A stretch of DNA of 63,568 nucleotides, counting the filler, from Hausera hauseri (Eukaryota), in NCBI GenBank assembly GCA_046269625.1. It is 10 parts of 10 records of this genome, joined end to end, with 100 filler letters (N's around TTAATTAATTAA, not from the genome) between each part and the next. Parts side by side here need not be neighbours in the genome. Positions count along the whole stretch, not along the records: positions 44,082 to 48,962 come from JBJURY010405145.1; 9 more parts are not named here. One strand, 5' to 3'. A program made the translations under genes and the position numbers. Below, piece after piece: positions 14,011 to 48,962 of this stretch (positions are counted from its first letter, which is position 1; each line of letters opens with the position of its first letter). The notes beneath the pieces are model-generated. The model saw only the letters and a list, made by a program, of their open reading frames with translations, made no database searches and had not been told where the DNA came from.

Positions 14011-14190
14011 CTACTATGAATATTATTTGTTGGCCTTTTCCTTATCAATCATAAATTATACATATGTTTACAGTCACATTTAAGACATGTACTAAATTGT
14101 AATGTTATTTCAAATTTGACTACACACGTTTCATGAATACACACACACGTTTATATTGATCTTATAAACCCATTACTTAAAATCTACGAT

Positions 14191-14336
14191 TCACCTCACC
14201 TGCATGTTTTTGGGCTGTGGGAGGAAACCAGAGTGCCTGGAGTACAACCACACAAACATGGGGAGAACATGCAAACAGACCTGGACCGCCCCATCTGGGG
14301 ATTGAACCTGGGTCTTTCTGGTTATGAGGTGACTGT
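14191..14336 (-). mobile_element. Decayed V-SINE fragment (teleost tRNA-derived SINE)
   Basis: Reverse complement reads ...tttgcatgttctccccatgtttgtgtgg...actctggtttcctcccacagcccaaaaacatgcagg, the same V-domain core as the SINE at 25130. Confidence 0.75.
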
Positions 14337-14644
14337 CATCTCCAACGAAATAATGGACGGTTTTCAGCACCGCGGACAGAAAACTATGAAAATAAAGAAA
14401 AGCAATCTCATTGGCTGTCACTCTTACACCTATTCGCAACTGGCCTGCGTGGCGAGCACTCTACTATTTGAGCTAATTCCCCATTGCCTTAGATTTACTG
14501 CAACCCTTGAGAATTTCAATGTATTGATGGCGAGTTGTCGCTCCCTTGGGTTGCAATGTGTTTTAGCTCGCATTCTATTAACTGTATACAAATGTGGTAG
14601 CCCTCCAGCAGTGAAACGTCAAAAAATATAATATTATAGTTTTA

Positions 14645-24960: not shown

Positions 24961-25129
24961 AGATATTTCTTCAAAAAAGGTGTTTAAATGAAACTTATTG
25001 AACATCCAACGTAGCACTATTAAAGGGATCTAAATTTTGACGGATTTGCAAGCGGTGAAGCCATGGAGAATACGGGCAGGCATCAGCTAAGTTTTAAAGG
25101 AAAATGGCTAGATCGTGAGGGTGCAAAGT

Positions 25130-25487
25130 GGGCGGCACGGTGGCTTAGTGGGTAGCACTGTCGCCTCACAGCGAGAAGGTCCTGGGTTCGATCCCCGGGT
25201 TGGGCGATCTGGGTCCTTTCTGTGTGGAGTTTGCATGTTCTCCCCGTGTCCGCGTGGGTTTCCTCCGGGTACTCCGGTTTCCTCCCACAGTCCAAAGACA
25301 TGCTACCAGGTTAATTGGAGACACTGAATTGCCCTATAAAATGGTTTCCTCCTAGGGGGGGTTGCGTCAGGAAGGGCATCCGGTGTAAAACATGTGCCAA
25401 AACCAATGATGCGGATCATAATTGATCCGCTGTGGCGACCCCTAATCGGGATTAGCCGAAAGAAGAAGAAGAAGAAGAAGAAGAAGA
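25130..25487 (+). mobile_element. Full-length composite SINE: tRNA-derived head + V-domain + RTE-type bipartite tail + (GAA)n
   Basis: A box tggcttagtgg and B box gggttcgatcc. V core gtggagtttgcatgttctccccgtg...ctccggtttcctcccacagtccaaagacatg. Then ggttgcgtcaggaagggcatccggtgtaaaa and ccgctgtggcgacccctaa..gccgaaagaagaa, which are typical of RTE 5' and 3' ends. Confidence 0.85.
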
Positions 25488-26038
25488 TGTATACAATAAG
25501 AATAGTGTGTGTTTGTGTTTGACCAAAGTGAGCAGTGTTGTTTTATACTATAACCAAAAATAATAATATAATTATATTACCAAATAGTAAAAAGATTTTT
25601 CTTATTTCAATCTAAACATACGAATGTTATAATGTATATTCGCGGATTTACTATTATAAGAACATTTGTAATTATATATTGTATTAAATAATTGTTACAT
25701 AAGGATATAAGAAGAATGTGTGCATATTTTGTACTTTCTGAGTTGAGCCCTAAAGCCCTGCAGCAGCTTGATGTTCACACTGACACTAAAACGTCTCCGT
25801 CTCTTCTCTGCAGGCTCTTCAAAAGATGTGACTTGTGGATTACATGCTGCACCTACCAACCACAAATCCTCGCAGTAGCTGCTACATCTCTTCTGTGGAA
25901 TATGATTTGCTCATGGGGCTCGGCTATCTCAAACTTTGGGGTTCGTTACCCCAGCTTTACTGACCAGTAGGAAGGTCCATAAACGTTTAAAGCAAGTATC
26001 CTCCTCTAAGAGTCAAGTTTGAGCAAATTTTCACAAAC

Positions 26039-26569
26039 ATGGAGCCTCACTGGAGCCCAGGTTCCCATTCTTCCCCAGTTCTAATCCTGCTGCTGGCTCA
26101 AAGCTGGTTTTTCCCTGCTGCCTCCCCTCAACGAGTCCCCACGGATCCCCAGGCGGCACCGGAGTACGCTCACTCCATCCGGCTCGACGGCGACATCATC
26201 CTCGGCGGATTATTTCCCGTCCACTCACGAGGCGACCGCGGCACGCCGTGCGGCGAGCTGAAGAAAGAGAAGGGCATCCACCGCCTGGAGGCCATGATGT
26301 TTGCCATTGACCTGATCAACAAGGATCCCGAACTGCTGCCCAACATTACGCTGGGGGCCCGGATCTTGGATACCTGCTCCAGGGACACGTACGCGCTGGA
26401 GCAGTCCCTGACGTTCGTGCAGGCCCTGATCGAAAGGGACGGCTCGGACGTGCGCTGCGCCAACGGGGACCCTCCCATCTTCACCAAGCCTGATAAAATC
26501 GTAGGGGTGATCGGAGCCGCGTCGAGCTCCGTGTCCATCATGGTGGCCAACATCCTGCGCCTCTTTAAG
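26039..26569 (+). CDS. grm8: Metabotropic glutamate receptor 8, first coding exon (signal peptide + start of the Venus flytrap domain); teleost
   Basis: [95 protein letters not shown] is GRM8-like among group III receptors. Donor AAG|GTAAG at 26569/26570. Likely acceptor ctctgcag| at 25813. Confidence 0.9.
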
Positions 26570-28199
26570 GTAAGAAAACCACTTCTTATGTCCAATGATA
26601 GCTCGTGTCTTGGCTGGAGTGTGACCTGCTTCACTTGCTCTCTCTCCTGCTAAAAAGAACTTAATAGCATTTACAGCTCTGCTAGCCTGGACGGTAATAC
26701 AGCTAAATTAAAAATCTTCAGCACCACTCTCATACACAAACTGCATTAAAGAGGTCCTTTATTTACTTAAATTGGATTAAAACAGGCTGACTAGCCAGTA
26801 AGGCGTTATTATTCAAAATAACCTGAAACCCCTGTGTCTCCTGTGTGTGTACTGATTTGTTAGAGGTAGAATCCTGTTTTTACTTATTTATTTATTTAAT
26901 TTAAAAAAGGTGTCACTTTCCTTAGTGATGACACCTCTTCCCTCCTGCACCAGTTGTGTGCTCGCCAAATTTCCCANNNNNNNNNNNNNNNNNNNNNNNN
27001 NNNNNNNNNNNNNNNNNNNNTTAATTAATTAANNNNNNNNNNNNNNNNNNNNNNNNNNNNNNNNNNNNNNNNNNNNTTATAAAAGTTTATATAACATTTA
27101 TCTCCTTCACTCGAGAAATGAGACTTATTTTCCTTCTTTTCTGAATTTCCTGATTTTCTGTTGTCTGTCTCAATTCCTCCTCACAATCGAGTTGTGAAAT
27201 AGCCATCTGCTTTAGCAATGCCTTCATGGATGTGTAGACGAGAAGCGATATGCTTTCGTGTTGTGTAATCCTTTCACAAAAATCTGGATTTTTGCGCCGA
27301 AGTAACGTTGTTTCGATGTGTTAATTCTCATGTTTTTATCAAGCTGTGGCACATGTTCAGAATCACTCGCCGTGATTTTTTGATTGTTTTACTGGCTGAA
27401 ATTATAATCAAACGTAGACGTGGGATCCCTCTTTATGATATGCATGCTTTGATCCAAAATAGGTTCATCTGTGTCGGATGATTTTGTAACAAAATTCCGG
27501 ATTGTATTTGACATTAAAACCGGATAGTTGGTTTTATCATGTATTAAGGCCGGATTGTTGTCCATGGCTGTGTTTTAGAGACCGGATTTGGCTCGTAAAA
27601 ACATGTATATTGCTTTGATTCAGTTTGTAAAAATATTGTAACATAACGTATCTGTATGCATACCATATTTTAGCTATATACTAAGTAGGGAGAAAATGGG
27701 GATTCGCCCTCACCTCCCGCCGAAACTGCTAGAGTGAATCGATTTTGCATATATATCAATCGATAGTGTAACAGGGAAATGTCTATGACAACGGCGCCTT
27801 TCCAGTTCAATCGATTAGAAATACGATGCATTAAAAGACATTTCAAATTTGTTGGGAATTTCATGTAATTGATACATTAAAACAAATTGTTTTGGAATAT
27901 TCGGAAATCAATAAAGTTCAAATAAAAGAAATCAATACATTTGAAATTCAAATAAAAATCAATAAATTTGACATTCAAATAATTAATAAATTTAAATATT
28001 TGAACTTAAAAATCTATAATCAAAGCAGTGTGCCTTGATATGGTTATATTTTTCAGTATTTCAGAAATCATTTCCAAGAATTGTGAGTATTTCAATTGTG
28101 CTTCACAAATCATTGTGCTTTTTCCTAGAATTACAAATCGACGATATTATACGCTCCACAAAAACTTCAAAACTGCGGTTCCTATGCTTATTGCACATC

Positions 28200-30886
28200 C
28201 GCAATATTGACAGCGCTACTATTGACACACTCAACAGGATCGAATATTTTATTTGTCCAGGATGTGAGGCTGTATGTGATGGAGAATACATGCCGTTTTA
28301 TGAAGATAATATTGCCCATTTGACAGACTTCACGGCAAAGTCACAGAAGGCCATCTTTAATGAGCAACATAATGTTGATGCATCTGCTTCGCAGTATGCT
28401 GCTGGATCTTTTGATGCAGCTGTTAAGCATATTAGAGAAATGAAACGCGCAGCCGCATCAGGCACAGTAGCATCAGGCGCAGCCATATTAGGTGCAGCGG
28501 CTCCAACAAAAAGCCCAAGAGAGCAGCCATTTGATGCTACAGCATTGAAGAGCATAGTCTGCAGATATGTCATTGCAGCAACTGGTCGTACAACCCTCAA
28601 AGAGTTCCTCGTATACACAAAAAAAGAGACAGAAGAAATTCTTCAGGATAACATGGCCAAGCTCAAACCCCTTAATGTGAATATAAAACTGGAGGCCACA
28701 CACATCAATGTTCATGGCGAAGAATTCGATAGAGCCTTCAAGACCAAAATAGGTCCATATTGGAAACAACCAATATAGTAGAATGGATGTATGAGGCACA
28801 CGCGAAGCTGATACATGAAGTTGGGGAGGGCCAGGATAAGAAGAGCGGCTGGTCCCTGGCAGCCATCAAGAGATTGCTTATGTATGTGCACAAGTACTCC
28901 GCCATGCGGGGCAGTTCATATAATTAGCTCCCTGAATGGATTCGTCGGAAAAACGCATGCGTTAATGTCCATAATAATGAAAACATGGGTTTCATGTATG
29001 TCGTTCTATAAAAACTTATACAAGATCAACATAATGTCTCACGAGTTTGGCTATATAAGGATGTGCAATACAACTATGACTTTAAATGTTTTAAGTTCTC
29101 GCCATTTATTGATGAAGTCTAAATATTCCGGCGACTCAACAATATATTAAATAACATCTTTGGATTGGATGATGAGGATAAATTCTATCAGCTACAGATA
29201 TGTGATGCTGAATTGGAAGATCATAGGGATCTGCTCCTACTAGATGATGGTGAAAAGAAGCACTATGTTTTGATAAAGAACTTTTAACGTCTACTCAGAT
29301 CCCAAATTACGAAACATAAGGAAAGAATCGAAATATGCAAAGATTGTTTGTCCAATTTCAGTGGCAAGTTAGCTCTGGACAGGCTTGCAGAGCACAAAAT
29401 GTACTGCAGCAACAATTATTGTATCAGGTGAGATTTCCCCAAGGAGGACTACATTGAATTAAAGGAGTTCTAGAAGAAGGTCAAGGTCCCAATACTCATC
29501 TATTGCTACTTTGTAACTATTCCGTGTCCAGTTCAGAGTTGAAGCCCTATTCCACAACATAGAAGCACAATGATATACCAATATCATGAACTCTCATCAT
29601 ATTGTATGTATTCAAAAGGACTGGACAGTGAACCATATCTATTCAAGGGTCCAGGCACAGCAGCACATTATATGAAACGATTTGAAGACGTGGCTCATAG
29701 GCTTGGAGACATGTTGCAGCAGAATAAGGCTCACATTAGAATGTCGAAGAAGAAAGACATCCCTATATTGGACCTGGAACCCATTGGAGATACGGGATAC
29801 ATACTGGAAATGGATGTTGAATATCCACGTAGCATTCACGCAAGGCATGAACAGCTGCTTTTCATTCCTGAGAGCAAGTCTCCGTCCCATGGAAAGCATA
29901 GAAAGCTTCTCTGTCATCTGCATAGTAGGGAGAGGTACGTAATCCACTAGATAAATCTCCAGCAAGCGGTCACGAATAGATTCCGCATCACTAAGGTCCA
30001 TCGAACCCTGCAGTTCAGCCAGTCCATGTTACTGCAGCTCTACATGGATCTCAATACGAAGCTGAGGGCTAATGCCAAGAACGATTTCGAAAAAGATCAA
30101 TTTAAACTGTATAATAACAGCGTTTATGGCAAGAAGATGGAGAATATCCGCAATAGGATTAACATCGAGTTGGCCTGTGAGTGGAAGCGAGCAAAGAAGC
30201 TCATTGCCACGCCTAATTTCAAAAGCAGCACCATATATGCGGAGAACTTTGTCAGCATCCATATGCTGAAAACATCCTTGCAATTCAGTAAGCCTATATA
30301 TGCGGGTAGCTGGTATGTGGGTGTGGCAATACCAGATCTGTCAAAGACCCTGATGTACAAATTCCACTACGATATCATGGAACCCACATTCCAGTCCATA
30401 CAGCTGATGTACATGGATATTGATATCTTCATCTATCAGATCCATACGGAGGACATCTATGCAGGCTTTGCTAAGTTAGCTCAGCATATGGATACGTCTG
30501 ACTACCCGAAGAAGCATCCGAACTATTTAATCACCAACAAGAAGGTCCTTGGGAAATTCAAAGACGAGGTGAATGGGGCGATCATCTCGCGGTTTGTTGC
30601 ACTGCGGAGCAAAATGTATGCAATCGATGTACGTGGCCAGGTAAAGAAGCGGGCTAAAAGAGTTCAAGGGACGATCTTAGCCACGAATATCACTTTTGTA
30701 AATTATGTGAAAGTTCTGCACGAGCAGACTCACATAATATCAGAGATGTGCAGTATCCAATCTAGGGCTCATAGCATTAAGACAGCAACACTGCATAAAA
30801 AGAGCCTAAATTGGAAAGATGACAAGAGACAGATCCTGGATGATGGAATAAGCACAATACCTCACGGGCATGCTGCATTAATGTGA
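28200..30886 (+). pseudogene. Polinton/Maverick protein-primed family B DNA polymerase (pPolB), frameshifted and internally deleted
   Basis: N-terminal CPGC zinc-finger-like motif; RAFKTK; SGWSLAAIKRL..KYSAMRGSSY.LPEWI..KNACVNV; GYILEMDVEYP..H..H; motif B FKLYNNSVYGK; KPIYAG..DLSK.LMY.FHY; motif C YMDID (from YMDTDS); KKVLGKFKDE..FVALRSKMY; KKSL..DDKR. Confidence 0.9.
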
Positions 30887-31330: not shown

Positions 31331-34300
31331 GAAGAAACGAAGGACTGAAAGAAAGAACGGATGAACGAAAGAAAGAACGAAAGAACAAAAGAAAGAACGA
31401 AAGAACGAACGAATGAAAGAAGGGACGAACCGAAGAATGAACGAAAGGAAGAACGACCGAACGAAAGAACGAAGGAAAGAACGAACGAACGACAGAAGTA
31501 ACGAAGAAAAGTAAGAAGGAACGATAGAACGAACGAAGGAACAAATAAACGAAAGAACAAACGAAAGAACGAACAAAGGAACGAACGAACGAAAGAACGA
31601 ACGAACAAAAGAAACAATGATTGAATGGACAAATGAAAGAACGAACGAAAGAAAGAAAAAACGAATGAATGAACCATGAAAGAACGAACGAAAGAATGAT
31701 CAAACGCACGAACGAACAAACGAATGAATGAACAAAGGAACGAACGAACAAACGAAGAAATGAATGAAAAATAATCGAAATAATAATCGAACAAACGAAT
31801 GAAAGATCGAACGAACGAACAAACGACCAAGCGAATGAAAGGATGAACGAATGAACGAATCAAAGAAAAAAATGAAAGAACAAACGAAGGAGCGAACGAA
31901 CGAAAGAACGAACGGAAGAACAAACGAAAGAATGAACAAAGAAACAAATGAACGAACGAAAAAACGAACGAAAGAAGGAACGAACGAACGAACGACAGAA
32001 AGGAAGAAGGAACGAACTAACAAACGAACAAATGAACGAACAAAAGAGCGAAAGAACCAACCAACGAACGAACGATAGAACAAAAGAAAGAACAAAGGAA
32101 CGAAAGAAGGACGAACGAAGAAACGAAGGAACGAAAGAACGAACGAATGAACGAACGAAGGAAAAAACGGAGGAAGGATCGAACTAACGAACGAACGAAT
32201 AAACGAACGAACAAACAAAAGAACGAACGAAAGAACGAACAAATGATGGAACAAAAGAACGAACGAAAGAACGTGAGAACGAACAAACGAACGAGCGAAC
32301 GAAATAACAAACGAACGAATGAAGGAGAAAACGAAGGAACCATGGAACGGAAAAACGAACGAACGAACGAAAGAACAAAAGAAGGAACGAATTATCGAAC
32401 GGACGAACGAACAAACGAAAGTACGGACGAGAGAACGAATGAATTAAAGATAGAAAGAACGAAGAAATAAAAGAAAGAACAAACGGACGAAAGAATGAAC
32501 GAACGGACGAAGGAACGAACGAAGCAACGAACGAAAGGACGAACGAACGAAAGAAGGAACGAACGAAGCAACGAAAGAACGAAAGAAAGAAAGAAAAAAC
32601 GTATAAAAGAAGGAAGAAAGCAAGGAACGAAAGAACGAACGAACAAAAGAAGGAAGGAACGAAGGAACAAACAAATGAACGAACGAAAGAATGAACGAAA
32701 GAACGAACGAAAGAACGATTGAAAGAACGAAGGAAAGAATGTCGAAAGAAAGAACGAAATAACGAATGAAGGAACGAACGACGAAAGAAGGAACGAACAA
32801 ACGAAAGACCGAACGAAGGAACGAATGAACGAAAGAAGTAACGAACGAAAAAACGGAGTAAGGAAAGAACTAACGAACGAACAAATGATCGATCGGAAGA
32901 AAGAACAAAGGAATTAACGAACGAAACAAAGTAAGAACAAACGAACGAAGGAACGAACCAACGAACGAAGGAACGAAAGAACGAACGAAGGAACGAAAGG
33001 AAGAACGAACGAAAGAAAGAAAGAAAGAACGAAAGAAGGAACGATCGAATGAAAGAATAAAAGAACAAACGAATGAAAGAAGGAAGGAACGAACAAACAA
33101 ACGAACAAATGAACGAAAAAACGAGTGAATGAACGGAGGACTGAACGAATTAAGGAATGAACAAATGAACGAACAAAAGACCGAACACAGGAATTAACGA
33201 ACGAACGAACGAACAAACGGAAGAACGAATGAATGAACGAACGAACGAGAAAACGAACGAACGAAAGAAGGAAGGAAAAAACAAACGAACGAAGGAAGGA
33301 ACGAATGAAAGAACGCAAGAACGAAAGAATGAACGAATGAACGAAAGAAAGAACGAACGAACAAAAGAACGAAAGAACGAATGAAAGAACAAACGAAAGA
33401 ACGGAGGAAGGATCGAACTAACAAACGAACGAATAAACGAAGGAACAATCGAAAGAACGAACGAAAAAAACGAACGAACGAAAGAACGGTCGAACGAAAG
33501 AAGGAGAAAAGAAAGTAACGAAGGAACGAAAACGATAGAACGAAAGAAGGTATGAAAGAACGAACGGACGAAAGAACCAATGAGCGAACGGTAGAACTCA
33601 AGAACGAACGAATGAACTAACGGACGAACGAACGAACAAAAGTACATACGAGAGAACGAATGAATGAAAGATTGAACGAACAAAGAAATAAAAGAAAGAA
33701 CAAACGAACAAAAGAAAGAATGAACGGACGAAGGAAAGAACAAAAGGACGAACGAAAGAACGAAGAAACGAACGAATAAAAGAACGATAGAAAGATAGAA
33801 TTAAGGAAGGAACAAAAGAACGAAAGAACAAAAAAAGGAAGAAACGAAGGAACGAACGAATGAACGAACGAATGAATGAAAGATTAAACGAACGAAGAAA
33901 TAAAAGAAAGAAAGAACGAACGAAAGAATGATCGAACGAAAGAACAAACAAATGAACGAAAGGACAAAAGAATGAACGAAAGAACGAACAAAAGATCGAA
34001 TGAGCGAACGAACACACGAATAAAAGAACGAAAGAACGAAAGAAAGAAGGAACAAAAAAATCATGGAAAGAACGAACGAACGAACGAACGAACGAATGAA
34101 AGAGCAAACGGAAGAATGATCGAACGATGGAAAGAACAAACGAACAAACGAACGAACGAAAAAACGAAAGAACGAACGAAAAAAGGAAGGAACGAACGAA
34201 CTAAAGAAAGAAGGAATGAACGAAGGAACGAAAGAACGAAGGAAAGTAAGGAGGAAGGAACGAACTAACGAACAAAAAAATGAACTAACGAAAGAACGAA

Positions 34301-36009
34301 AGAACCAACAACGAACTAAAGTAGAACGAACGAAAGAACAAAGGAACGAAAGAAAGAACAAAGGAAGGAACGAAGAAACAAAAGAACGAACGAATGAACG
34401 AACGAAGTAAAGAAAGAAATAACGAAGGAATAAACGAAAGAACGAACAAATGAAAGAAAGAACGAAGAAAAAAACAATCTAAAGAACGAAAGAACGAACG
34501 AACAAACGAACGAACGAATTAAAGAACGAATGAAAGAACGAACAAAAGAATGATCAAATAAAAGAAGAAAAAAACGAACGAACGAATGAAAAAACGAAAT
34601 AAAGAACGGAGAAAGGATCGAACTAACGATCGAACGAATGAACGAACGAACAAACGAAAGAAGGAACGAAAGAACGAACAAATGAAGGAACAAAGAAGAA
34701 ACGAATAAACGAACGGACAAACAAAAAAACGAAAGTACGAACGAGGGAACGAATGAATGAAAGATTGAAAAAACGAAGAAATGAAAGTAAAAAAGAAAGA
34801 ACAAAAGAATGACCAAACGGACGAAGGAACGAACGAAGGAACGAACGAAAGGACGAATGAAGGAAAAAAAGAACAAACGAACGAACGAAAGAACGAAAGT
34901 AAGTAAGAAAGAACAAAAGAAAGACGGAAGGAAGCAAGGACCGAAAGAACGAACGAACAAAAGAAGGAAGGAAGGAAGGAACAAACGAATGAACGAACGA
35001 AGGAACACACGAAGTAATAAACGAAAGAACGAACTAACGAAAGAAAGAATGAAAAAACGAAGGAAAGGTAGAAAGAAAGAATGAAAGAACGAAAGATCGG
35101 ATGAAAGATTAAAAGAACGAATGATTAAAAGAAGGAAGGAACAAATGAACGAACGAAGGAACAAACGAAAGAACGAAAGAAAGAACGAAAGAACGAAAGA
35201 ACGAATGATGGAACGAACGAAAGAATGACGAACAAAAGAAGGAAAGAACGAACGAGCGAACGCAAGAACGAAAGAAAGAAAGAAAGATCGAATGAATGAA
35301 CGAACGAAAGAAGGAACGAACGATCGAACGATCGAACGAACAAACGAAAGAACGAATGAAAGAACAAAAGAATGTACGAAGGAAAGAAAGGACGAAAGAA
35401 CGTACGATCGAACGAAAGAACGACGGAAAAAACGGAGGAAGGAACGAATTAAGGATTGAAGAATTGAACGAACGAAAGACCTAATACAGGAATTAACGAA
35501 CGAATAAACGAACGAACGAACGAACGAACGAAACGAAGAACCAACGAACGAGCGATCGAAAGAACGAAGGAACGAAATAACAAACGAAAAAACAAACGAG
35601 AGATCGAACGAATGAAAGAAAAATAAAACGAACAAAAGAATGAAAGAAAGAACGAAGGAACGAACGATAGGAAGAACGCAAGAACGAACGAATAAACGAA
35701 CGAACGAACGAACGAACGAACGAACGAAACGAAGAACCAACAAACGAGCGACCGAAAGAACGAAGGAATGAAATAACGAACAAAAAAACAAATGAGAAAT
35801 CGAACGAATGAAAGAACAAAAGAACGAACAAAAGAATGAAAAAAAGAAGGAACGAACGAATAAAAGAACGAAAGAAAGAAGGAAGGAAGGAAGGAACGAA
35901 AGAACGAACGAACAAAAACAGGAAGAAACGAAGGACTCAACGAACGAAGGACCAAACGAACAAATGAAGGAATGAACGAAAGAACGAACGAAAGAAACAA
36001 ATAACGAAC
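31331..36009 (+). repeat. Degenerate (GAAC/GAAA/GAAT)n simple satellite, 4.7 kb
   Basis: The entire contig is a purine-rich GAAN tetramer array. All ORFs here are artefacts (SFVR/NERT repeats). Confidence 0.97.
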
Positions 36010-36816
36010 NNNNNNNNNNNNNNNNNNNNNNNNNNNNNNNNNNNNNNNNNNNNTTAATTAATTAANNNNNNNNNNNNNNNNNNNNNNNNNNNNNNNNNNN
36101 NNNNNNNNNGAAGTGTGTGAATTTCAAATAGATACCTATAGCCTTAAAAAAGAACTCAATGACACTGAGATAAGGTGGATATTCAATCCGCCCGCAACCC
36201 CTCATTTTGGGGGAGTCTATGAAGTTATGATCAAATCAATAAAAGGCTCACAAAATAAATTACTCCCGGAGACCTTCTTGACAGACAAAGAGCAGGAAAC
36301 ATTACTAATAGAGATCGAAGGAATAACGAACATTCGGCCACTAATAAGAGCCGCTGATGACTGCAAAAATGATGTCATACTGTCTGCAAACCATTTTATA
36401 ATAGCTAGACACAACGGTGCAATCTATTCAGAGATAAGCGGAACGAGAAACAGCAGCTTCGCAGATAGGTGGAGATACATACAGAAGTTAGTCAACGAAT
36501 ATTGGGACCGCTGGAGAAGTGAAATCCTGTCCGAATGGCGAAATTATGAGAGAATAAAAGGAGAAAAGATAGAGCTGAAAATCGGATACAAAGTGCGGCT
36601 GTTGGAGAAAAATAAAAAGTAAATCACTGGCCAGTCACAGAAATAACGAAGGTTTGCCCTGGGGTGGACAACGTCATAAGGGTTGTAGAGATAAGATTGA
36701 ACGGGAAACATGTAAAAGGCCAGTGCATAAGTTATGCAGAATAGAAAATGAATTGAATTGGATGGATACCGTATAGGATGTATCCGTGAGACGGATGACT
36801 TCAAGGAGGGGGGAAA

Positions 36817-38470
36817 TGTTGGGACCCTATTGTTAGTTGTGGAATCCGGCAAAAGTCCGATCAGAATTCGAAATTAAGGTAAAGAGGAAGGTATGTGTGT
36901 ATATAGAATGTATGTGTGTATGTATAGGAATGAAAACGGGTATGTTGGTATTATATATATTGTACACAATATTTTATGTTTATTTTGTTAAAATTGTGTG
37001 TGTGAGATCCGGTTGAAAAAAGAGGAGTTTGATTGGAAAATGTAAATATATGTGGAATGTGAAATTGAATTATGAATTATTTAATCGCGACGCAATTCCT
37101 GTAGACGTCCATGGAGTCGGAGAAAGGAGAGGCTGTGTATCGGTAGTTGTATACGTGTGTGTCTATAATGTATATTCACATAGGTGGAGAAAGAAATGAT
37201 GTAAGTGAAAATTTATTGCAAATTGATAGAATAAAAGGAATTTAAAATTTAAATTTTTTGAATTTGAGAGATTTCTGCTATGATTAATCAGCCAAAGCAG
37301 AGCTATATATGATTATTAAAAATCAGTATCTGCAGATTAAATTCCAAAGGAGAATAGAGTATTGAAAGTCTATGAAAACGGATAAAGAGTCAATTTAGAA
37401 TTGAGTTTCGTGTGACAATAATGAAGACATTCATTCTAATATCTGAAAAATTGTTGACTTGGAAATTATCACACTCTACTGGTAGAGATATCGCGATATG
37501 CTTCTTCTATGCTAGCAATGTAAATGACGCTATGAGAAACGTTGAGGAATTGATGGGTGATGACAAACAAATCGATGTGTTGTTGAAGTCTGGTGATAGA
37601 TCCAGAGTCTGTAGCATTGAAATAACCTACCTTATGGATTTAAATGTGCGGACTGAACGACGAAACACATATCACAAGATAAGCAGACAAAATTAATCAA
37701 AATTATTGCTCGAACAAAGACTGATCATTGAAAGTAAAGTGAATCATCTTCTTATTCGTTCGACCGAGATGTGTAATGGGCACGAAATTTCTCAGTTGAT
37801 CTTTCAGAGATATTTCTATTATCTTCATGGTGATCTCCGTGAAAATATTTCATTAAACTCAACCGTTTTGAAACGCTCACTATGGAATCACCGATGGGTT
37901 TGGTCAATCTCGTTGGAAAATTCTCCTCTCTGACTTTTCTACGTGAAGCATAGTTATCTGTACGTTGTCGGTGGTCGTCAGAGCAAACTGGAGATGTTGT
38001 GTAGAGTTAAAGGTATTGTTCATTATAATTATTCTCGTTGCTTCCCTTTATCTTGTCTTTTGATTGTCGACAGGGGTTGCAAGCGGTGTATGGATACGTT
38101 TGTGTTTGTGATGGTGATTGATGGGGTTTGTACGGTCGTGTTGGAACTTGGGTTTGGGGTTAAGAAAGGAATTACATGTATTGTTCGGCTCAAACTAGGT
38201 GGGTTTGTAAATGGGAAAAGGGGGAATGTGACTGAAGAGGTCATGCTGGTCGGAGCGGAAATTAACTTCCCTAGGAGATACACCCTTCGGGTGATCAGAT
38301 GTGTTCGACAAAATAGGTCTATATCAAAACTAAACGGTTTGAAGGTGAATGGCCCCAGTGGGAAATCTATAAAAACATCTTTGCGTCGCGTGAATGAGGT
38401 GTTTTGTTTGAACGATGAAGCAAATAACATGGGAAGAAATTTATTATATATTTTCTGTATAAAATTTCCA
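36817..38470 (+). repeat. Single LTR of the BEL/Pao element (~1654 bp, TG...CA)
   Basis: Starts TGTT directly after the polypurine tract aaggaggggggaaa (36803-36816). Ends ...tttCCA 5 nt before the PBS. There is no second copy to confirm the boundaries. Confidence 0.7.
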
Positions 38471-38475
38471 TTATT

Positions 38476-38494
38476 TGGTAGCAGAGCGTGGTTT
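38476..38494 (+). promoter_or_regulatory. Primer-binding site complementary to initiator tRNA-Met
   Basis: tggtagcagagcgtggttt matches the complement of the metazoan tRNA-iMet 3' end (TGGTAGCAGAG..TGGTTT). Confidence 0.85.
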
Positions 38495-39029
38495 GTGCTC
38501 TGCACCGTGATCAGCAGGTACGGACTATGCAATGCAATGGCCTTTGGAATTCTAGATGTCCTTTTCCTTGATGTTGGCCTACTTTTCCTCCCTTATTGTA
38601 TGTATGGAGAGAGAATCCGTGCCAAGCCCGTAAACGTTGCAACGGAAAATCGTACGCGGAAATTAGGCAACGCTGAATGTGAGGCAATGGTGACGCTGTC
38701 GGAGAAATTAAAAGTATTATATATTCGAAATAAAGAAAAGAATCAAACGTCTATTTGCGCCGAAGGGACCAAAAGACGTAATAAATCAAATACGCAGAAA
38801 GTAAAACATTTAGAAGAAACTTGCTTGGGGAGATGAGAAATAAATTGCTAAAAGGAATGAATTGGAGGAATCTAAACGGTATTGAGGAACAGTCAACTGA
38901 GAAGGCAAAAGGAAAAATGGAAAGTTGAGAAATCTGAAGAAAGGCACAACAATGAGACAAGTTAATATAAGGAAATCAGATGATAAGAATATTGGGGAAA
39001 ATTCGGTCTATTTAGTAGAACAAAATTAG

Positions 39030-40772
39030 AAAAAAATAATCGTACTTTGTAATGGACGTCACTATGTTTCAGGGACAATAAAATTACAATCCTACCGTGC
39101 TCTATCAGATCACATAAAGGAGAACCTGAGGATTAACGGTGAATTCACATTATTGAATACCGGAAAGCCATTCCGTACAGACGATGAAGTGACGGATTTG
39201 AAGCACGGCTCAACAATTCACTTGATGTTCCAGTTGAAAAGAGGAAGCAAACTGACCGTGGCTGAGCTCGAAGAACGTATTGCCGAACGACGAAGGCTTA
39301 TGAACGAATTAGCCTTGATCGGAAGGAGGTTGATGGACATAAATGTGAGTGAACATGACTACGACGTGTTCTACCAAAGTTACGAAAAGATTTTCTCAAA
39401 TATCCAAGAGGAACTCTGTTTATTGACAACCGCAGCTAGAAAATTAAAAAGAAAGGAGAATATAACGCTACTGGAAAACGAGATGAAGAAGTTAGACGAA
39501 CAAAATGAGGAGATTAACACGATTATTTACGAACTGAGTCTCCGAGATAATAAAATTTTCGTCAATGTAGCAAAAAACAGCAAATGACGAAATAAAAGAA
39601 AAAATAATTTTGTCTAAACTATAAAGGTTGGAATTGCCAAAATTTGGTAGTGCAATCATCGAATATGACCGATGGAGAAGAACATTCTACACGTGTATGG
39701 ACAAAACGTTAATGTTTACCATATGTAAACAACTACATTTAGAAAGGTGCTTATATGGTGAGCAGAAAAGGTTAATAGAAAACTTCAACATGTCAGAAGA
39801 AGGGTATAGGGCATCCCTGGAAAAACTGGATTTCTACTACGGTGGTGAACAGCGATCTTATGCGGTGTTTATGACCAAAGTCATAAGGTTCCGAGCAGTA
39901 GAGGAGGAAGACATCAAAGGACTAGACGAATTCGTGGCTTTGTTGGAAGGGATAATCGTAAGATTGAGGAATCTAGGGAGAACAAAGGAACTTAATGGAG
40001 GGCTATTGTATCAAAGACTTATGGAGAAGCTCCCAGAATCAATTATACTTCTGTGGGAAAGGCACGCCATTGAGAAATGTCGGATAGGGCCGTAGTATAA
40101 TTGAAGAATTGGATTGAAATAAAAGCGATGGTCAGGCGGAATGCCATAAAGAGAGTGAGACAGATAGAAACGTTCAACACAAGTCAAAGTGTTCGAAATT
40201 TACGGATAGAAGATAGAAGATCGTACTTTACAAAAAGATCACAGGCTGTAAATAGAGAGTGCAAGAATACGAACTCCAAAATAAAAGATCGAGAAGTTAA
40301 AGAAGGGAGGCAGTCTAGCCACCCCAATATACAGCGAGGAGATCGATCCCAGAGATGCTGGAATTATGATAAGAACGGTCAACGTAAATTCGGAGAGAAT
40401 TGTAAATATTTACATCAACCTAATAAGAACGATCAAAAAAGGATATGCTCGTATTTTGAGAAAGGAGAATGCAAGTATGAAAATGATTGTAAATTCCTAC
40501 ATGGGAAAATTGGTAGCAAGGAAAAGGGCAAAAGCAGTAATGACAAGGAGAAATTAAGGCGAAAAATTGAAAATTCCTGTGAAAAAATAGTAGGAACGAC
40601 AACAGAGGAATCAATACCACGGTCGTTAAAGAATGAAAAAAGGAAAGAAGTAAAAAAGAAACAAAACGATGTTAGATCCTACGTTACCCAACGTTCTGAG
40701 GAGACAAGTGAACAGGAAGAAATGGTAGCTCTGAAAACAGTAGAAGTATGGCTAAGAATGGGAATAGAATGA
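39030..40772 (+). pseudogene. BEL/Pao Gag: ubiquitin-like domain, coiled coil, Gag core (DUF1759-like) and two CCCH zinc fingers
   Basis: Open frame from 39030: KKIIVLCNGRHYVSGTIKLQSYRALSDHIKENLRINGEFTLLNTGKPFRTDDEVTDLKHGSTIHLMFQLKRG. Then ELPKFGSAIIEYDRWRRTF..KQLHLERCLYG..LDFYYG. Then CWNYDKNGQRKFGENCKYLH and CSYFEKGECKYENDCKFLH. Confidence 0.8.
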
Positions 40773-43700
40773 AAAATGCAATAGTGCTGTTGGACGATGC
40801 TCGTACCGAGAGATTCGTCGATTCAAAACCAGGCGAAGAACTAGGTGTCGATAAGAAAACAGAAAGGTTGACGATAACAGTTGTCAGAGGGAAACAGACT
40901 GAGATGTCTATTGACAGGGTTAAAATGGTATTGATAAATATGGACCGATCGATAGAAGTCAAATTTGAGGCGATAGCTATGAAAAATCTAATCGGAAAGA
41001 TGAGGGCAGTGAATTGGTTCACAGAAAAATAAAAATGGCCCCATCTAAAGCACCTAAAGTTTTCCACAATATCGCAAAACTTAGAGGTGAATAATATTCT
41101 TGGGGCAAACATTATAGAGTTATACAAGCCAATCAAAGACGTATATGGCAAAAGGGTGCGGTGTGCGATTAACTCCGTTAGGCTGGAACTGTGTAGGACA
41201 AATAAAAAAAAGAAAAAACATAAATAGTAATTTCATAAGAACTTTTTGGACAAGGACAGAGGAAATTCAAAATGATCTGAGCCGCTTATGGGAAGTCGAG
41301 TTTAACATGGATGCAAAAGAGTTTGAGAGGAATAAACAAGACGAGGAGGCAGTAAAACAAATTTTAAAAGAAACGACTCATTAAGAAAATAGATACTCCG
41401 TGCCGTTACCACGGAAGGGATGGATACAAACTGAAATGGAAAACAATCAATGGATGGCAGAAAAACTATTGAAAACTCTGAAGAATAAGTTAGATAAAGA
41501 TGAGGAGGCAAAAGCAGCCTATGAGAAGGTAATAGAAGTACATACGAAGGAAGGATATACCCTAGTGTTGGAAGAACGAGAGGAACAAGAGAGAGTTTGG
41601 CTGTTGCCACATTTTCCGGTCATGAAAATCGATAGGGAAACCACAAAATTCCGGATAGTTTTCGATGCTGCTTCGAAATATCGGGGAAAGTGTCTGAACG
41701 ATTTTCTGGATCCTGGCCCGAAATTACAATTGGACATTATAGGCATTATATTAAGGATGAAAAAACGGCCATGGGTTGTCATATATGACATCCAGGAAAT
41801 GTTCTTGCAGATTAAGATAAAACAAGAAGATAAGAAATATCTAAGATTTCAATGGTATAAGCATGGGGAACGCGACATATAGGAGTTCAGTCGGTTGGTA
41901 TTTGGGTTGAACGCCTCTGCATTTCTGGCGCAACTGATATCAAGACATAACGCCGAAAAATTCAAAGATAAATTCCCCAGAGCCGTAGAAACGATAAAGT
42001 ACTCTACATACATGGACGATTGAATCAATTCAGTCAGCACTGAGAAAGAAGCTGTTTTGTTATACAGCGAGCTAAATGAGATCTTGAAAAAGGCTGGGAT
42101 AGAACCACACAAATGGTTGTCAAACTTTAATGAATTAATGAATGTAATAATTACCACGAGCCGAGCCAAGGAATTTAACATATTGGAAAAAATTGATGTT
42201 ACCAAGACGTTGGAAATGAAGTGAAAGACCGAAGATGATAGATTCCAGTTTGAGGATGTAATAAGCAAGAAATGGAGACAACAAAAAGAACACTATTAAG
42301 CGCATTGTCGAAAATATTCGACTCGTTAGGTTTCCTCACTTGTTACACATTGTTGGGCAAAGTGTTTCTACAGCAACTGTGGATAATGAAAATAGATTGG
42401 GACGAAAAGATCCGGAAACAATTAAGTGAGAAAATAAGGATATGGGTAGAACGAATGAAGAACCTGAGTAGAATAAAGGTACCAAGGTATTTATATTTTA
42501 AGGAAGGCGACTACAATAAGATACATATTTTCTGCGACGCTTCAAGATGGAGGTATGGGGCGGTGGCCTATTTAAGGTCGATAGTGGAAGGAGAAATTAA
42601 AGTAGTGATCATGTGCTTGAAAGGTAAGGTGACACCGGTAAAGTCTGTCGCCATATCAAGACTGAAACTGATGGCAGCCTGTATAGGAGTCAAGCTGGGT
42701 AGAAAAGTGAGTAAGACTCTGTGAAACAAGAAGGAGGAGATACGGCACTGGACGGATAGCATGAGCGTACTGTATTGGATAAAAGGCTGCAGTAAGTATT
42801 ACAAAACGTTCATTGCGAACAGAGTAGGATTTATCCAAGACGAAACGACCGGAAGACAATGGAACTATGTAAAGATGGAACGCAACCCAGCGGACTACCT
42901 TTCTAGGGGACTAGATGTCGACGAGTTAGGAGACAAAATAGAGTGGTGGAATTGTCCAGATTTTTTCAGAAAGACAAAAGATCAATGGTCTGTTCAACCC
43001 ACAGAACTAACTAAACCAAAGGATGAGGAAAAGAGAAGAGACTCATTTGCAGTGATGTCTTTGAGAAACAGTACAACAGAAGGAGAGTATCAGAGTCAGG
43101 ATAATGTGGATAATACCGAACAATATGCCAGATCCCGTTGCGAAGAGATGTTTAAACAAAAGGTAAGATAAATTGCACAAAGGGAGGAGAATAATAATTT
43201 AAGTGAAATACAGCTGAGAAGGATAGCAAAACTAGAAATAATAAAGGAGGATCAAGAAAAGGAGTTTTACACAGAAATTAGAAATTTACGATCTAAGAAG
43301 GAGATTAGCATTAAGAGCATTATTGCAAAGTCTAACCACGTTTCAGATGACGAAGGAGTATTGAGATCGTGTAGCCGGTTAATGACGACCTCTTGGTAAA
43401 ATTGGGAGCAAACGTACCCAATAATACTGTGTGTCGTAGTGCATTATAACAAAATTATTTATTGAGGATATACATTTAAACGCGGCGGGAGTCAACCACC
43501 AAGTGGCGGAGTTAAGTAGTACGTATTGATTCCCCAGGATTAAGAAGCTAGTAAAAGCCTATCAAAATTATTGTATGATCTGTAAGAGGTCAAAAGCGAA
43601 AGGAATACAAACAATAGGAGCACCATTACAGGCGTTTAGAACACAATTGCCGCTTAAAGCCTTCGACAAAGTTGGAATTCATTTCGCCGGACCGGTGAAG

Positions 43701-43981
43701 ACGCGACAAAAACGAGGGTTATTACATGAAAAAAGGTACATCTGTCTAATCACGTGTTTGCTCTGTCGAGGGGTACACGTTGAAATGTTGACAGGATTGG
43801 ACATAAATTCCTTCGTAAAGGCTCTCAAACGCTTTATAAGTCGGAGAGACAGACCTTCGTTGATAATCTCCGACAATGGAGGGATATTCATAGCAGCGAA
43901 TAGAGAAGTGTGTGAATTTCAAATAGATACCTATAGCCTTAAAAAAGAACTCAATGACACTGAGATAAGGTGGATATTCAA
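40730..43981 (+). pseudogene. BEL/Pao Pol (protease, RT, RNase H, integrase; continues at 36110-36790)
   Basis: Motifs as listed for the whole element; multiple stops and frameshifts. Confidence 0.9.
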
Positions 43982-44081: not shown

Positions 44082-45375
44082 GAGTCCGTCTTGGTGCTCT
44101 TTTACCCATTTACCTCTCTTCTGATTTTTACAGCGCTTATTATAATTTTTGGAAACTAGAAAAGTCATCGCTGTTAATATGATAAGAACGAAAATTGACA
44201 AACTAAATATAGCTATTATCGGTGAGTTATTCGGCTCAATAGAACTTTCCGTGATGAACACATTCTGAGTACTGAGATCTTTATACGGCATTAGTTCAAT
44301 TTTATTGCCAAGAGTTCGTACTGTAAAAGTTTTAGGGTTCTTACTCTTTGCGGTAATTCTAATTATATAGTCATGTTGCGGCCGTAAGGACCTGCATTCA
44401 GTTTCCTGACTATTCTTTCTCAGGATTACAACTTGATTGGTATGTAAGGTGCCTCATTCAATTTTGATGTCTCGATTTAACGTCGCTTCTGCGTAAAATA
44501 AGATTCTATCGCTTTTTGCCAAAATCTTGACTGGTGTGTTTCCTGGCATTTCTACTGAAGTGACAATCGTAGTAGTGAGAGTTGTAGTTGGAACTGTAGA
44601 TGGTCTTCTCGTAGTGGTTGGGAAGGAAAGCTTCCATCTTCCGATTTTTGGACGGTATCCTCTTAAATAAGTACTTTGTTCTCCGGGATACGTATTGTAT
44701 AAGTCGAATTGTAACTGATAATCCTGTCCTGGTTGTATTACAAAGCACGTGGTGGATCGGTGTCTGGCCATATAACAATACTCCGGATTAGGAATAGAAG
44801 CATTCAATGGTATAAATCGGACAGAAATTTGCCTATCTCCGGGCAGTTCCACCTTAGTTTTGATTCGAATACATTGGTTTTTTAAGTCCTTTGAAATTCC
44901 AATAATGTTATAAACTAAGAGTCTTTTGAACGGATCAGTTCTTCGGATTATTTCGTCCATCTTAGCTTGGTTTGCGTCCTTTCGTTGGGGCATTCTTATT
45001 ACCAGTTCTGTAATTATATAGGCTTAAGCACCAAACCGATTAGAATAAAACATTTCGAATTTGTATCCGTAGGCTTGTCCAAATTCCAAATCACAGCATC
45101 TTTTGTGATTTCCGCATAAAAATCACATTTTCTCACAGTGGATCTGGTTAAAAATATTATTTGAAATTTTACGTGGCTCTAAATAGGTTTGCTTGCTTCA
45201 AACCATGCACATGGTTTGCTCCAATCCATATCGTGTACTCTAAGTAATTGCACGTTCTGGATATCCCTGCGTTTTATCGTGTATCGTAGGTTTTCGGCTC
45301 TGGTTATTGGTTTCACCTTGGGTACTTAAGAAGCGATTAGCGATAGGGTAAGGATTACTTGTACATATGATATCG
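44082..45375 (-). pseudogene. Env-position type I membrane protein downstream of the Gypsy integrase (signal-like segment, FN3-like motifs, Thr-rich linker, TM, basic tail)
   Basis: ISYVQVILTLSLIAS follows the integrase tail. 44993-44082 is one frame with a single TGA at 44454-44456. It contains IQPGQDYQLQF and LRPQHDYIIRITA, PTTTRRPSTVPTTTLTTT, and TM IIAIFSLSIFVLIILTAMTFLV followed by KNYNKRCKNQKRGK. Confidence 0.7.
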
Positions 45376-48300
45376 GTCTGGTTACGATTGACGATGTTTT
45401 CCTTTCCTTATTGACTTTATTTGAACGCAAATTATAGCGTTTATCTGGTCTTATTTCCGTTTTAACTACTCTCTGAATTGATACGACTTCTTCCCTGCCG
45501 TTTTTATTTATATAAACTGTGGCTGGCGTAATCCTAGTAACTTCATAAGTTCCTCTGCCTGTCCTAGTAAGTTTCAAAGATGTGCCTTTCTTTCCTACTC
45601 GTGAGGTTTAGCTTTCTTATCGTATTGCTTCTTGAATTGTTCGTGGTATTCTTCAGATAATTTCTTGGCTATCTCCCAACACTTGTGCAATCTTGATTGT
45701 AATACTTCAACAAGATTTTGTTGTAAATCCTCCGTTTGTGTTGTATAAGGAATCAGTCCTAAATCTATAGGAAGCGCAGCTTCTCTTCCGTACATTATAA
45801 AAAATGGAGTGAATCCTGTCGCAGGATGTGGAGCAGTATTAATTGAAAACTGTGTACTTTCTAAGAACTTATCCCAATCTTTCTAGTCTTTTGCGACTAC
45901 TATGGATAAGATTTGTTTAACTGTCGCGTTTATTCGTTTGACCATTCCATTACATTGGGGATGATAAGCTGTGGTAGTTAATCGTTCAATCTCAAAAATT
46001 TTGGTAATTTTATCGAACAATTCGCTCGTAAAGTTTCTTCCTCGGTCTGTCAAGATTTGTTCGGGTTACCCGTATCTGCAAATGATTTTCCGAACTATGG
46101 CTTTTGCCAAGGTCTCGGCCTTTTGGTCTAATAACGCTACAAGTTCGACGAAATGAGTCAATCGGTCTATGCAGGTCAAAATGTATTTCTTATTCTTGTG
46201 GGTTGTAGGCAGTGGTTCTACAATATCCATAGACATTGCTTGCATTGGTCTATCAGGCACGTCGATAGGTTTAAGTTCGGCGATGTAGCTTTTTACTTTT
46301 CTTTCTTTGGTTGCGCATACTTCGCAAGCGTTCACCCAATTTCTTACGTCGATATAAATGCTCGGCCAATAGTATTTATTTAATATTCTTTTCCATGTCT
46401 TTTTCCACATGTGTCCGGCTAAGTATGAATCATGTTCGGCCATGAGCACTTCCGTTCGTAATCCTTTTGGTATGACGACTAATTTTCGTCCCTTCCGTTC
46501 GTAGTACAATACATCATCGTAATTCGAATCTCCAGCGACGCAGTATTTGTGGCCATATCTCCGTAGGTGTTTTCGCAACTGGAGACCTTGGGTGTTACGT
46601 TGGCATCAACGAACTCGATAATCTATTGTACAACCTTATCTTTTCTCTGTTCAATAGCAATTTTTAATGCCTTATCTAGTGTGAGAGTCCGTTGTCTTTC
46701 TACCAAATCTTCAAGGTGTGCTTTCCTCATTACTGTAACGGCGCTTGTTTTGGTTTTAAGTCTTGATAATGCGTCGGCATCGACATGTTTACTTCCGAGT
46801 TTATATTGAAATTCAAATTGTAACGTGAGATTTCCTTGATCCATATCTGTTAAGTCTACAGGTTGGATTATTTGCTCTACCCTTTAAGGTTGTAACTGCC
46901 TTATGATCAGTAACTATTAAAATCTTTTGTCAATAGATATACACGTTAAAGTGTCGCAGTGCTTCTTTCACTGCCAACGTTTCCAACTCTGTTACGGAAT
47001 AGTTCTTCTCAGCTTTCTTTAGAGAACGCCCTTCATATGCGATTGGATGTTTTAACTCCTCGTCTTCTCGTTTCTGAGCCAGTTCATATCCGATACCTTC
47101 CTTACTGGCGTCTGTTTTGATTATGAACGGTAGGTTGAAGTCAGGATATCTTAAAGCAGGTTCACTAGTTAGAATTTTTTTCATTTCGACAAAAGCTTTC
47201 TGTTCGATATCGGTCCATTTCCATTTGATTCCCTTTTTCAATAAACGATACAAAGGTGCTTTTATCTTAGCACTGTCTGACACATAAGTGGCATAATACC
47301 CACATAATCCTAACCAGTGTCTCAATTCTTTTTGATTATGGGGTTCCATGCAGTCCGATATCTTACTTAATAATGATTTATCCGGCTTCGATCCTCCTTC
47401 TCCGACTATATGTCCAACGTACGATACAGTATTTGAGCCCATTTGCACTTCTTAGGATTCAATTTCAGTCCAGCTTGCTCCAATCTCATGAGTATACCTT
47501 CGATGTATTTTAAATGTTTGTCTTCCGTTTTCGAGGCAATCATGACGCCATCTAAATAGGCGAACGCATGTTCCAGTCCCATTAGCATCTTGTTCATCAT
47601 GCGGGTAAAGATAGCTGGTCCAGTAGTGATTCTAAAAAGCATGACATTGAATTCATATATACCGTCGTGTGTCTTAAATGCTGTTTTGTAACGGTCTTCC
47701 TCTTCTATCTCTACCTGCCAATATCCAGATTGTAAATCGAGCGTAGTAAACTATTTAGCTCCCGAAAGTCTGTCCAAAGCTTTCTTTACAGAGGGTAGCG
47801 GAAAAGAATCCTTTAGCATAAGCGTATTTAACGCTCGGTAGTCGATGCAAAATTGGTGTTTGGCGGTACCTTTTTTCTTGACCATTAGTATTGGTGAATA
47901 CCAAGATCTGTAGCTTGGTCTAATTATGTCTGCCTTTAACATTCGTTCAACTTCTTTGGTTATCTCTGGCCTTAATGAGTGTGGAGGAAGGTACCATTTT
48001 GGCATCTTTTGATCCTCTAAGTCTATTTCCTTGTTAGATCCGGGCTTTTTCTTAAGCGGAATCGTAAGCCTTAAGGTTTTGGCTCGGCCAATATCTTTTT
48101 CATCTCTCGCAATATTTGAACTATAACGACAAAGTAATTCGTAAAATCGACAATATGATTCTGGTGGAAACTTATTCTCTACATGGGGCGGAAATTCGGC
48201 ACCCTTATATGGTTTCTCCTCAATAGTGATTGATGGTACTCTACACGTGTGTCCCAAAGTGGTATTAGCGTACAGTTTAATCGGAGTTGGTGCGTTATTT

Positions 48301-48962
48301 GCTATTCGGTTTGGCACGCGGTCTGTTGATACTCTTGTCAAAATATTGCTGAGCACGAGATTTGGATTGAGCGATTCTTTTGGTTCAAATATATTTGGTG
48401 ATCGTCATCCTGACGTATCTGAGCATATATTAGAATTTCTGTTCTGGGTTGTATGGTTTCATCTACTGGAATTTACACTTCTACGAATTTTCTATCTTTG
48501 GTAGTTTTGACTCCTTTTATTGGGCCCAGTTCTATTAACTTGCCTGAATTGAAATCGATTGCTATATTGGGTAATTGTCTCAATAGGTCACACCCTAACA
48601 CTACATCATCCGTTAATTGCTCCATTACTGAAAATTTATGACGAAAAGATTGTCCCATTATGTGAATTTCTGGTTTCCATTGGAATTTACTCTTCGAGGA
48701 TTGTCCGAAAGCTCCAATGCTTCCTCGATCTGTCGTAGGAGGTGAATATAATTGTTTCCGTAAGAATTGTGGTATCGAATCACTTTTTATCAGTGATATT
48801 TCAGATCCTGTATCTATTAGTGCATAAACCTCCCAATCTTCCAATTGAATTTTTGCGAAGGGCCTGCCTTCGATTACGGTACCGTAATACCTTGGCGCTA
48901 TCTTGGGTTGTCGTATCATAGACACTTTGTAGCCGTTGATGGTGACTTCAGTGGTTCCAACT
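45326..48962 (-). mobile_element. Ty3/Gypsy pol (PR-RT-RH-INT), decayed
   Basis: PR ALIDTGSEISLI; RT SPILMVKKK..FCIDYRALN..DSFPLP, LDLQSGYWQ, AYLDG(D); RH IKTDASKEGIG..AEKNYSVTELETLAV; INT HDSYLAGH..YYW..CEVC, MDIVEPLP, TDRGRNF, YHPQCNG. Confidence 0.93.

Follow-up and report, generated by a model that had tools for sequence, protein, structure and literature searches.

What kind of gene stands in the envelope (env) position of a decayed Ty3/Gypsy element in the genome assembly of Hausera hauseri (GCA_046269625.1)? The element was found in a stretch of 63,568 nucleotides, filler included (the whole of it is hereafter called the window), in which unrelated contigs are joined by spacers of N44, a 12-nt linker and N44, and neighbouring contigs are uninformative on the flanks of the element. 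Its own contig (positions 44082-48962, 4.9 kb; JBJURY010405145.1) carries the Ty3/Gypsy pol gene and a following accessory open reading frame (ORF), all on the minus strand. In agreement with the original prediction, which was made from the DNA alone, this ORF occupies the env position and encodes a fibronectin type III (FN3)-like membrane protein of type I, the sequence of which matches none of the known env families. Our favoured, still tentative answer is that the accessory protein is a non-fusogenic attachment or cell-contact protein, namely a type I membrane glycoprotein with three FN3-like domains carried by an invertebrate Ty3/Gypsy lineage.

By searching 1.84 billion representatives we obtained two homologues of the accessory protein, the intact P0006 (479 amino acids (aa), E 1.8e-49) and P0007 (189 aa, E 1.5e-30), both singletons, located on ENA contigs of 4,939 and 16,242 nt, respectively. 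The three sequences are 36-47% identical to each other, and P0006 is colinear with the window ORF from the signal stretch to the tail over ~1.27 kb without an intron-sized gap. P0006 is composed of a signal stretch, a helical segment, repeat 1, a short helical link, repeat 2, a Thr-rich hinge, repeat 3, a stalk, a transmembrane (TM) helix and a basic tail ended by a YxxPhi motif. The corresponding features of the window ORF are given below in the order of translation; these and all other domain coordinates were derived by hand from residue numbers.

45329..45385, minus strand: signal-peptide-like stretch with which the accessory ORF begins (hydropathy peak of 2.33 in 11 residues; aligns with the P0006 N-terminus)
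45245..45328, minus strand: segment near the N-terminus, preceded by a stop (a helix in the P0006 model; the two sequences share an aligned dibasic Arg pair)
44982..45244, minus strand: FN3-like repeat 1, with two stops and a frameshift at 45140-45113 (tblastn of P0006; repeat 1 versus repeat 2, z 9.8; model compared with an FN3 monobody)
44628..44909, minus strand: FN3-like repeat 2, unbroken (seven-strand sandwich in the P0006 model; fibronectin FN3 match)
44544..44627, minus strand: short Thr/Ser-rich hinge (12 Thr/Ser in 20 residues; present in both homologues)
44301..44543, minus strand: FN3-like repeat 3, with one stop at 44454-44456 (strict pattern in 3/3 sequences; Pfam fn3 14.3 bits, cut-off 25)
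44154..44219, minus strand: TM helix of 22 residues (hydropathy of 2.67 in 19 residues; modelled both times as a confident helix)
44082..44153, minus strand: basic tail on the cytoplasmic side, truncated where the contig stops (YxxPhi motif terminates both homologues)

The accessory ORF amounts to ~415 codons that are interrupted by four stops (first positions 45328, 45181, 45026 and 44456) and, between 45140 and 45113, by one frameshift, close to the ~400 codons with a few stops and one frameshift estimated initially, and the contig end cuts it roughly a dozen codons short of the ends of the homologues. In the frame 45113-44085 only two stops are present in 343 codons, versus 23 expected at the same composition (P 2.6e-8). 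Three repeats are present rather than the two described at first, repeat 1, which is clearly related to repeat 2, being split by the frameshift. Repeats 2 and 3 are marginally related (z 0.3-2.7 in six pairs), repeats 3 and 1 show no detectable relationship, and repeats 1 and 2 carry paired Cys. The FN3 signature proposed for repeat 3 stands in its strand E-F part: a strict FN3-type pattern occurs once among the window's 127,132 six-frame codons, at 44387, and in both homologues (2/2). This strict pattern was taken in place of a loose one, which had eight matches in the window, five of them outside the ORF. The Trp part of the signature is unsupported, as the alignment column of the 44454 stop, which had been read through as Trp, shows another residue in both homologues. 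Likewise, the Thr-rich linker is present in the window and both homologues as a hinge of ~25 residues before repeat 3 and not as a mucin domain, whereas the 22-residue TM helix (44219-44154) followed by a basic tail is as predicted.

The fold was measured on a model of P0006 built from the three-sequence alignment, and not on the window copy. Repeat 2 forms a seven-strand sandwich in this model (pLDDT in blocks of ten about 53-73), and its top match among 48,161 chains in VIA-align is a fibronectin FN3 domain (Z 9.2, root-mean-square deviation (rmsd) 2.2, 83 residues aligned), with similar values in a second alignment (Z 8.7, rmsd 2.3, 83 aligned). Repeat 1 resembles an FN3 monobody (VIA-align Z 7.4, rmsd 3.0, 84 aligned). 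The predicted FN3-like fold is thus well supported for repeat 2 and fairly supported for repeat 1; for repeat 3, modelled at pLDDT under 50 with its fold barely tested, the suggested FN3-like nature is based on the motif. For the window piece itself, a model made from its single sequence was of low quality (pLDDT 41.8) and gave no fold match at E<=0.001.

A Foldseek search with the P0006 model, in which the domains are arranged arbitrarily, returned 80 PDB matches at E<=0.001; their whole-chain TM-scores are low for this reason. Judging by titles and by what we presume of these proteins, 42/42 of the matches listed contain FN3 domains. Matches from the Atlas are FN3 membrane proteins (0.85-0.87) and serve as leads only, and a second Atlas search of clusters was uninformative (peak 0.84). 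The FN3 domains of fibronectin, cytokine receptors, Robo/L1/LAR, phage tails and the herpesvirus protein ORF129A likewise fold as a sandwich of seven strands and share the Leu/Tyr motif in strands E-F. The identity to the PDB fold matches is at most 14%, and no sequence-level relative, and hence no donor, was found. PDB sequence searches with the accessory protein gave nothing under E 0.1 (CD45 at E 2.1 is not significant), and NCBIfam and PHROGs gave weak, uninformative matches only.

Some of the fold matches point in another direction, to a stable cargo that would act on the host cell and not in particle delivery, for instance by blocking superinfection, by modulating signalling or as a decoy resembling a cytokine receptor. 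The tandem of repeats 1 and 2, which have paired Cys, aligns to cytokine receptors (IL-20R2, Z 8.4 over 168 residues, but rmsd 13), and the best match in the viral fold library BFVD is ORF129A of a fish herpesvirus, the cyprinid herpesvirus (E 2.5e-5), followed by phage tail FN3 proteins. Non-envelope types of ORF3 are also described in rotifer long terminal repeat (LTR) elements, in the part of that report covered here (PMC5408684). However, these matches do not go beyond the fold (7-14% identity), the protein has a short tail and no ligand is known; we regard a host-acting role as unlikely.

The accessory protein has the surface and transmembrane protein plan found downstream of integrase in env-carrying Metaviridae, and one may ask whether it is a fusogen of an undescribed kind. 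The env position, the type I topology, the N-terminal helical segment with its aligned dibasic pair and the YxxPhi tail would fit such a role. On the other hand, a strict pattern scan, which left out the looser R-x-x-R, for the R-x-K/R-R furin site that precedes a fusion peptide in the F-type env of errantiviruses found none in 4/4 sequences, and the intact homologue P0006 has no 19-residue hydrophobic peak between the signal and the TM helix. The matches listed for the P0006 model in PDB and BFVD include no viral fusogen of class I (F-type env), class II (phlebovirus-type) or class III (gB-type), which does not exclude one; residues 76-286 of the model match FN3 and the remainder was barely tested. 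Lacking a canonical furin site and any long hydrophobic stretch within its ectodomain, which three small sandwiches mostly fill, the accessory protein does not look like a fusogen. We consider a new kind of fusogen very improbable.

Does the accessory ORF belong to the element? The pol gene that precedes it contains the following domains.

48572..48868, minus strand: retropepsin protease of pol (Pfam RVP, E 3e-8)
47451..47978, minus strand: reverse transcriptase (RT), one in-frame stop (RVT_1, E 3.7e-24)
46933..47217, minus strand: RNase H (RT_RNaseH_2, E 1.1e-31)
45595..46572, minus strand: zinc-binding domain and core domain of the integrase, interrupted by two stops (Integrase_H2C2, E 5e-16; rve, E 3.8e-15)
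45386..45607, minus strand: probable C-terminal tail of the integrase, following a frameshift and continuing without a stop into the accessory ORF (open frame, position)

The order protease-RT-RNase H-integrase, established with Pfam, is that of Metaviridae (Ty3/Gypsy) in the ICTV profile (PMC7879559). By sequence the RT appears nearest to Ty3/Gypsy, its three matches among solved proteins in a PDB sequence search including Ty3 Gag-Pol (E 2.3e-35). The region 45386..45607 has no Pfam match at E<=10, and we take it to be the integrase tail by its position and a presumed likeness to Gypsy integrase tails. A long spacer separates protease and RT (48100-48470, minus strand); we assume that it resembles the dUTPase-derived remnant of some Gypsy clades, and Pfam gave no support for a dUTPase family there. 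The contig ends just before the protease (48962), gag and the 5' LTR lying beyond it, and neither end of the contig (44082/48962) shares a 15-mer with the rest of the window. CpG observed/expected (o/e) of the contig is 1.06, which suggests that the host of the element is probably an invertebrate with little methylation; from the likeness of the innexin-family ORF in the window, a flatworm that parasitizes fish is a tentative guess.

As originally observed, the integrase tail runs into the signal-like stretch: one frame is open from 45607 to 45329 (93 codons), and 48 nt (16 codons) on the same strand and in the same frame separate the last basic motif of the integrase from the signal-like stretch. 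In an inserted Gypsy element a polypurine tract (PPT) and LTR would separate integrase from a neighbouring gene (PMC7879559). An LTR does not fit into 48 nt, and this position rules out a neighbouring gene beyond the 3' LTR, the case that would have refuted the original reading. The ORF is also intronless, and its coding-strand composition is close to that of pol (A 0.363 versus 0.371; CpG o/e 1.05 versus 1.06), in contrast to an innexin-like region elsewhere in the window (A 0.328, T 0.348). The rates of lesions are similar as well, with 5 in 1278 nt of the ORF (3.9 per kb) and 11 in 3564 nt of pol (3.1 per kb; p 0.78), the latter comprising six stops and five frameshifts, the last near 45600; the pol count was made by hand segmenting, with stops at segment borders left out and frameshifts placed by eye. 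The element copy in the window is dead, with pol and the accessory ORF equally broken. Because the ORF abuts pol without room for an LTR, is intronless and shares the strand composition and decay rate of pol, it is probably the third gene of the element, and we are fairly confident that it is a long-term cargo.

Two other origins of the join bear on the same observations. The join could be an assembly chimera of a repeat and an unrelated sequence, given that the assembly is fragmented and mixed and that a neighbouring element contig may be circularly collapsed. An open frame of 93 codons across the join, uniform composition and decay there and the lack of a tandem repeat at the join make this highly implausible. 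Alternatively, the mRNA of a host surface protein may have recombined once onto the end of pol in the window copy, the homologues being ordinary host genes. FN3 membrane proteins are common in animals, the linked copy is single, the homologues have no known context, and template switching would likewise yield an intronless join on the same strand. The pol-like strand composition and the equal decay argue against such a one-off event, as do the place of the join, right after an apparently complete integrase tail and right before the signal stretch, and the tiny size of the family (two matches in 1.84 billion), which has no conserved host orthologue. We judge a one-off capture to be improbable.

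The homologues offer a view of the history of the protein. Hinge, repeat 3 and TM helix are kept in three members, and the tail motif in both homologues; this conservation at 36-47% identity points to long selection on the protein. Further searches yielded no longer forms of the window protein (0/1087 candidates), no shorter forms (0/12, covering 30-102 residues), no relatives of P0006 other than itself among 3340, and no confirmed matches among 67 pattern matches in prokaryotic genomes.

How the ORF would be expressed was the subject of a further claim, that it is made as a fusion to Pol and released by signal peptidase. Release from Pol fits because the ORF is in frame with pol in the window copy and no in-frame ATG precedes the signal stretch in 45607-45329. 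Without selection, such an open join would arise by chance in roughly 1 in 14 cases (0.21 for the last 22 codons x 1/3 for the frame). The Pol fusion is slightly disfavoured, since the intact homologue was called as a free-standing ORF of 479 aa with its own Met just before the signal stretch and no Pol-fused form was found in the homologue searches, which covered the 1.84 billion representatives and the 1087 longer candidates. Spliced env mRNAs (PMC12992720) and internal env promoters (PMC4402516), described in the parts of these papers covered here, are alternatives to the fusion. We regard separate expression, from an own start or a subgenomic mRNA, as likely, and the fusion released from Pol as conceivable at a lower probability.

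The mechanism that we propose for a non-fusogenic attachment protein starts from the architecture, the fold of repeat 2 (more weakly that of repeat 1) and the position after pol, which were observed; we infer all of its functional steps. The signal stretch would direct the protein into the endoplasmic reticulum, from its own start or a subgenomic mRNA or by release from Pol. The YxxPhi tail would then sort it to the membrane domain or the endosomes where capsids gather. The FN3 domains may bind the surface of a neighbouring cell, e.g. a stem or germ cell, and hold the producer cell or a vesicle to it, and entry would follow by uptake or a host fusion route, the accessory protein itself not fusing. 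A further-reaching version, in which a long-lived invertebrate Gypsy lineage swapped its viral fusogen for a captured three-FN3 adhesion protein that docks capsid-bearing membranes onto stem or germ cells, is possible rather than probable.

Several points weigh against an FN3 attachment protein as a cargo of the element. On the side of fold, the P0006 model, built from three sequences, is weak overall (mean pLDDT 49.6), and Ig-like sandwiches other than FN3 come close in score (Z 8.0 for beta-galactosidase, Z 7.5 for DUF3244), with the aligner cautioning that Z under 8 may reflect merely a common arrangement. In Pfam, the fn3 family (PF00041; gathering cut-off 25 bits) scores 14.3 bits in the window ORF, 13.0 bits in one homologue and has no match in the other. 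As to function, an FN3 fold alone shows none, and an adhesin alone leaves the crossing of a membrane by the capsid unexplained. As to linkage, a single copy shows the connection to pol, the homologues are singletons without DNA context, the composition control is one region (the innexin-like one), and no PPT or 3' LTR is present on the contig, which ends inside the ORF. Purine runs inside the contig were considered as a PPT and rejected, all of them lying within coding sequence.

Comparison with described systems places the accessory protein in a known position with an apparently undescribed cargo. A survey of 1512 env-carrying Gypsy elements, in the portion available, describes F-type and gB-type envs found with env baits (PMC13524379). 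These elements likewise have a gene for a signal peptide, ectodomain and TM downstream of integrase; however, their products resemble paramyxovirus F or herpesvirus gB, whereas the window ORF is FN3-like and has no canonical furin site, and the flatworm elements of the survey place gB before pol, whereas the window ORF follows it (PMC13524379, same portion). The term 'fibronectin' has no occurrence in the main text of the survey, which could miss an FN3 class because env baits were used. In the bdelloid rotifer LTR elements, as far as the covered part of the report extends, ORF3 varies among F-like env, small TM proteins, a GDSL lipase and a DEDDy nuclease (PMC5408684); the position after pol thus likewise accepts non-fusogen cargo, and in that part none is described as FN3 and 'fibronectin' occurs 0 times.

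Two further systems offer comparisons, each taken from the available sections of its report. Drosophila MDG1-group sORF2 elements spread from cell to cell without env via a small fusogen (PMC11952523). They employ a membrane protein in spread without a classical env, as we propose for the accessory protein, and are a precedent for env-independent spread; sORF2, however, is a short FAST-like fusogen, and the accessory protein has 479 aa (P0006) and a multi-domain ectodomain. The Oikopleura Tor elements are likewise of the Gypsy type with a membrane glycoprotein after pol, and their env, expressed by splicing or an internal promoter, is a model for expression without Pol fusion (PMC4402516). Tor Env differs in undergoing furin cleavage and in carrying a putative fusion motif, whereas the accessory protein lacks a canonical furin site. 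The covered sections of PMC8220671, PMC554778 and PMC12440569 added nothing on FN3. An FN3 cargo in an LTR element was not found in the literature searched, a scope outside which lie Repbase, subscription papers and supplements.

Other contigs of the window were examined in less connection with the element. A BEL/Pao element (DUF1759, Peptidase_A17) occupies 36110-43981 (plus strand), the contig ends of which share 66 identical nt (36121-36186 = 43916-43981). It starts in mid-integrase, continues with a purine tract and a probable LTR start near 36800 and then gag-pol, and represents either a circle with one LTR or an assembly that collapsed circularly. A CCCH zinc finger is matched in its gag (E 2.3e-9). 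An innexin-family ORF (51953-52639, plus strand; E 1.6e-29) adjoins a second, different decayed Gypsy pol (~49300-51900, minus strand). The contig 10977-26976 is fish-like, with CpG o/e 0.49, a metabotropic glutamate receptor exon (25991-26650), a non-LTR RT with RNase H (14640-16822) and complex dispersed repeats (18300-24900). CpG o/e is 1.00-1.25 in five other contigs, one of them with the innexin-family ORF, and intermediate, about 0.7, in two. The assembly is a mixture of two organisms.

Among the remaining features, 31336-35996 is a 4-bp microsatellite array of ~1167 copies (68% matches) with extreme strand skew, and 54134-55234 holds an inverted repeat pair resembling a miniature inverted-repeat transposable element (~290 nt, 80% identity). 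Two overlapping ORFs at 4516-5291 (plus strand) have a weak BACK domain match (E 2.2e-5) and possibly represent a broken BTB-kelch gene. ORFs at 28020-30883 and 56136-59461 and at 8044-8625 (plus strand) have no Pfam match at E<=0.01. We presume, without Pfam support, that the first two are Polinton/adintovirus-like (a piece of family B polymerase, an integrase start and a capsid-like ORF) and that the third is like the end of a Tc1/mariner transposase.

The weight of the finding is limited by its basis in one decayed copy without an LTR, and the diversity of cargo after pol is already known from rotifers. In invertebrate LTR elements, most of the surface proteins described in the env position are viral fusogens or small proteins resembling them. 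If an FN3 attachment protein is indeed carried in this position and used in spread, there would be an env-position gene class invisible to baits made from known envs and a transmission route based on adhesion and not on fusion. It would also show that elements can recruit the host adhesion toolkit, and whether attachment is sufficient for spread between cells would become testable.
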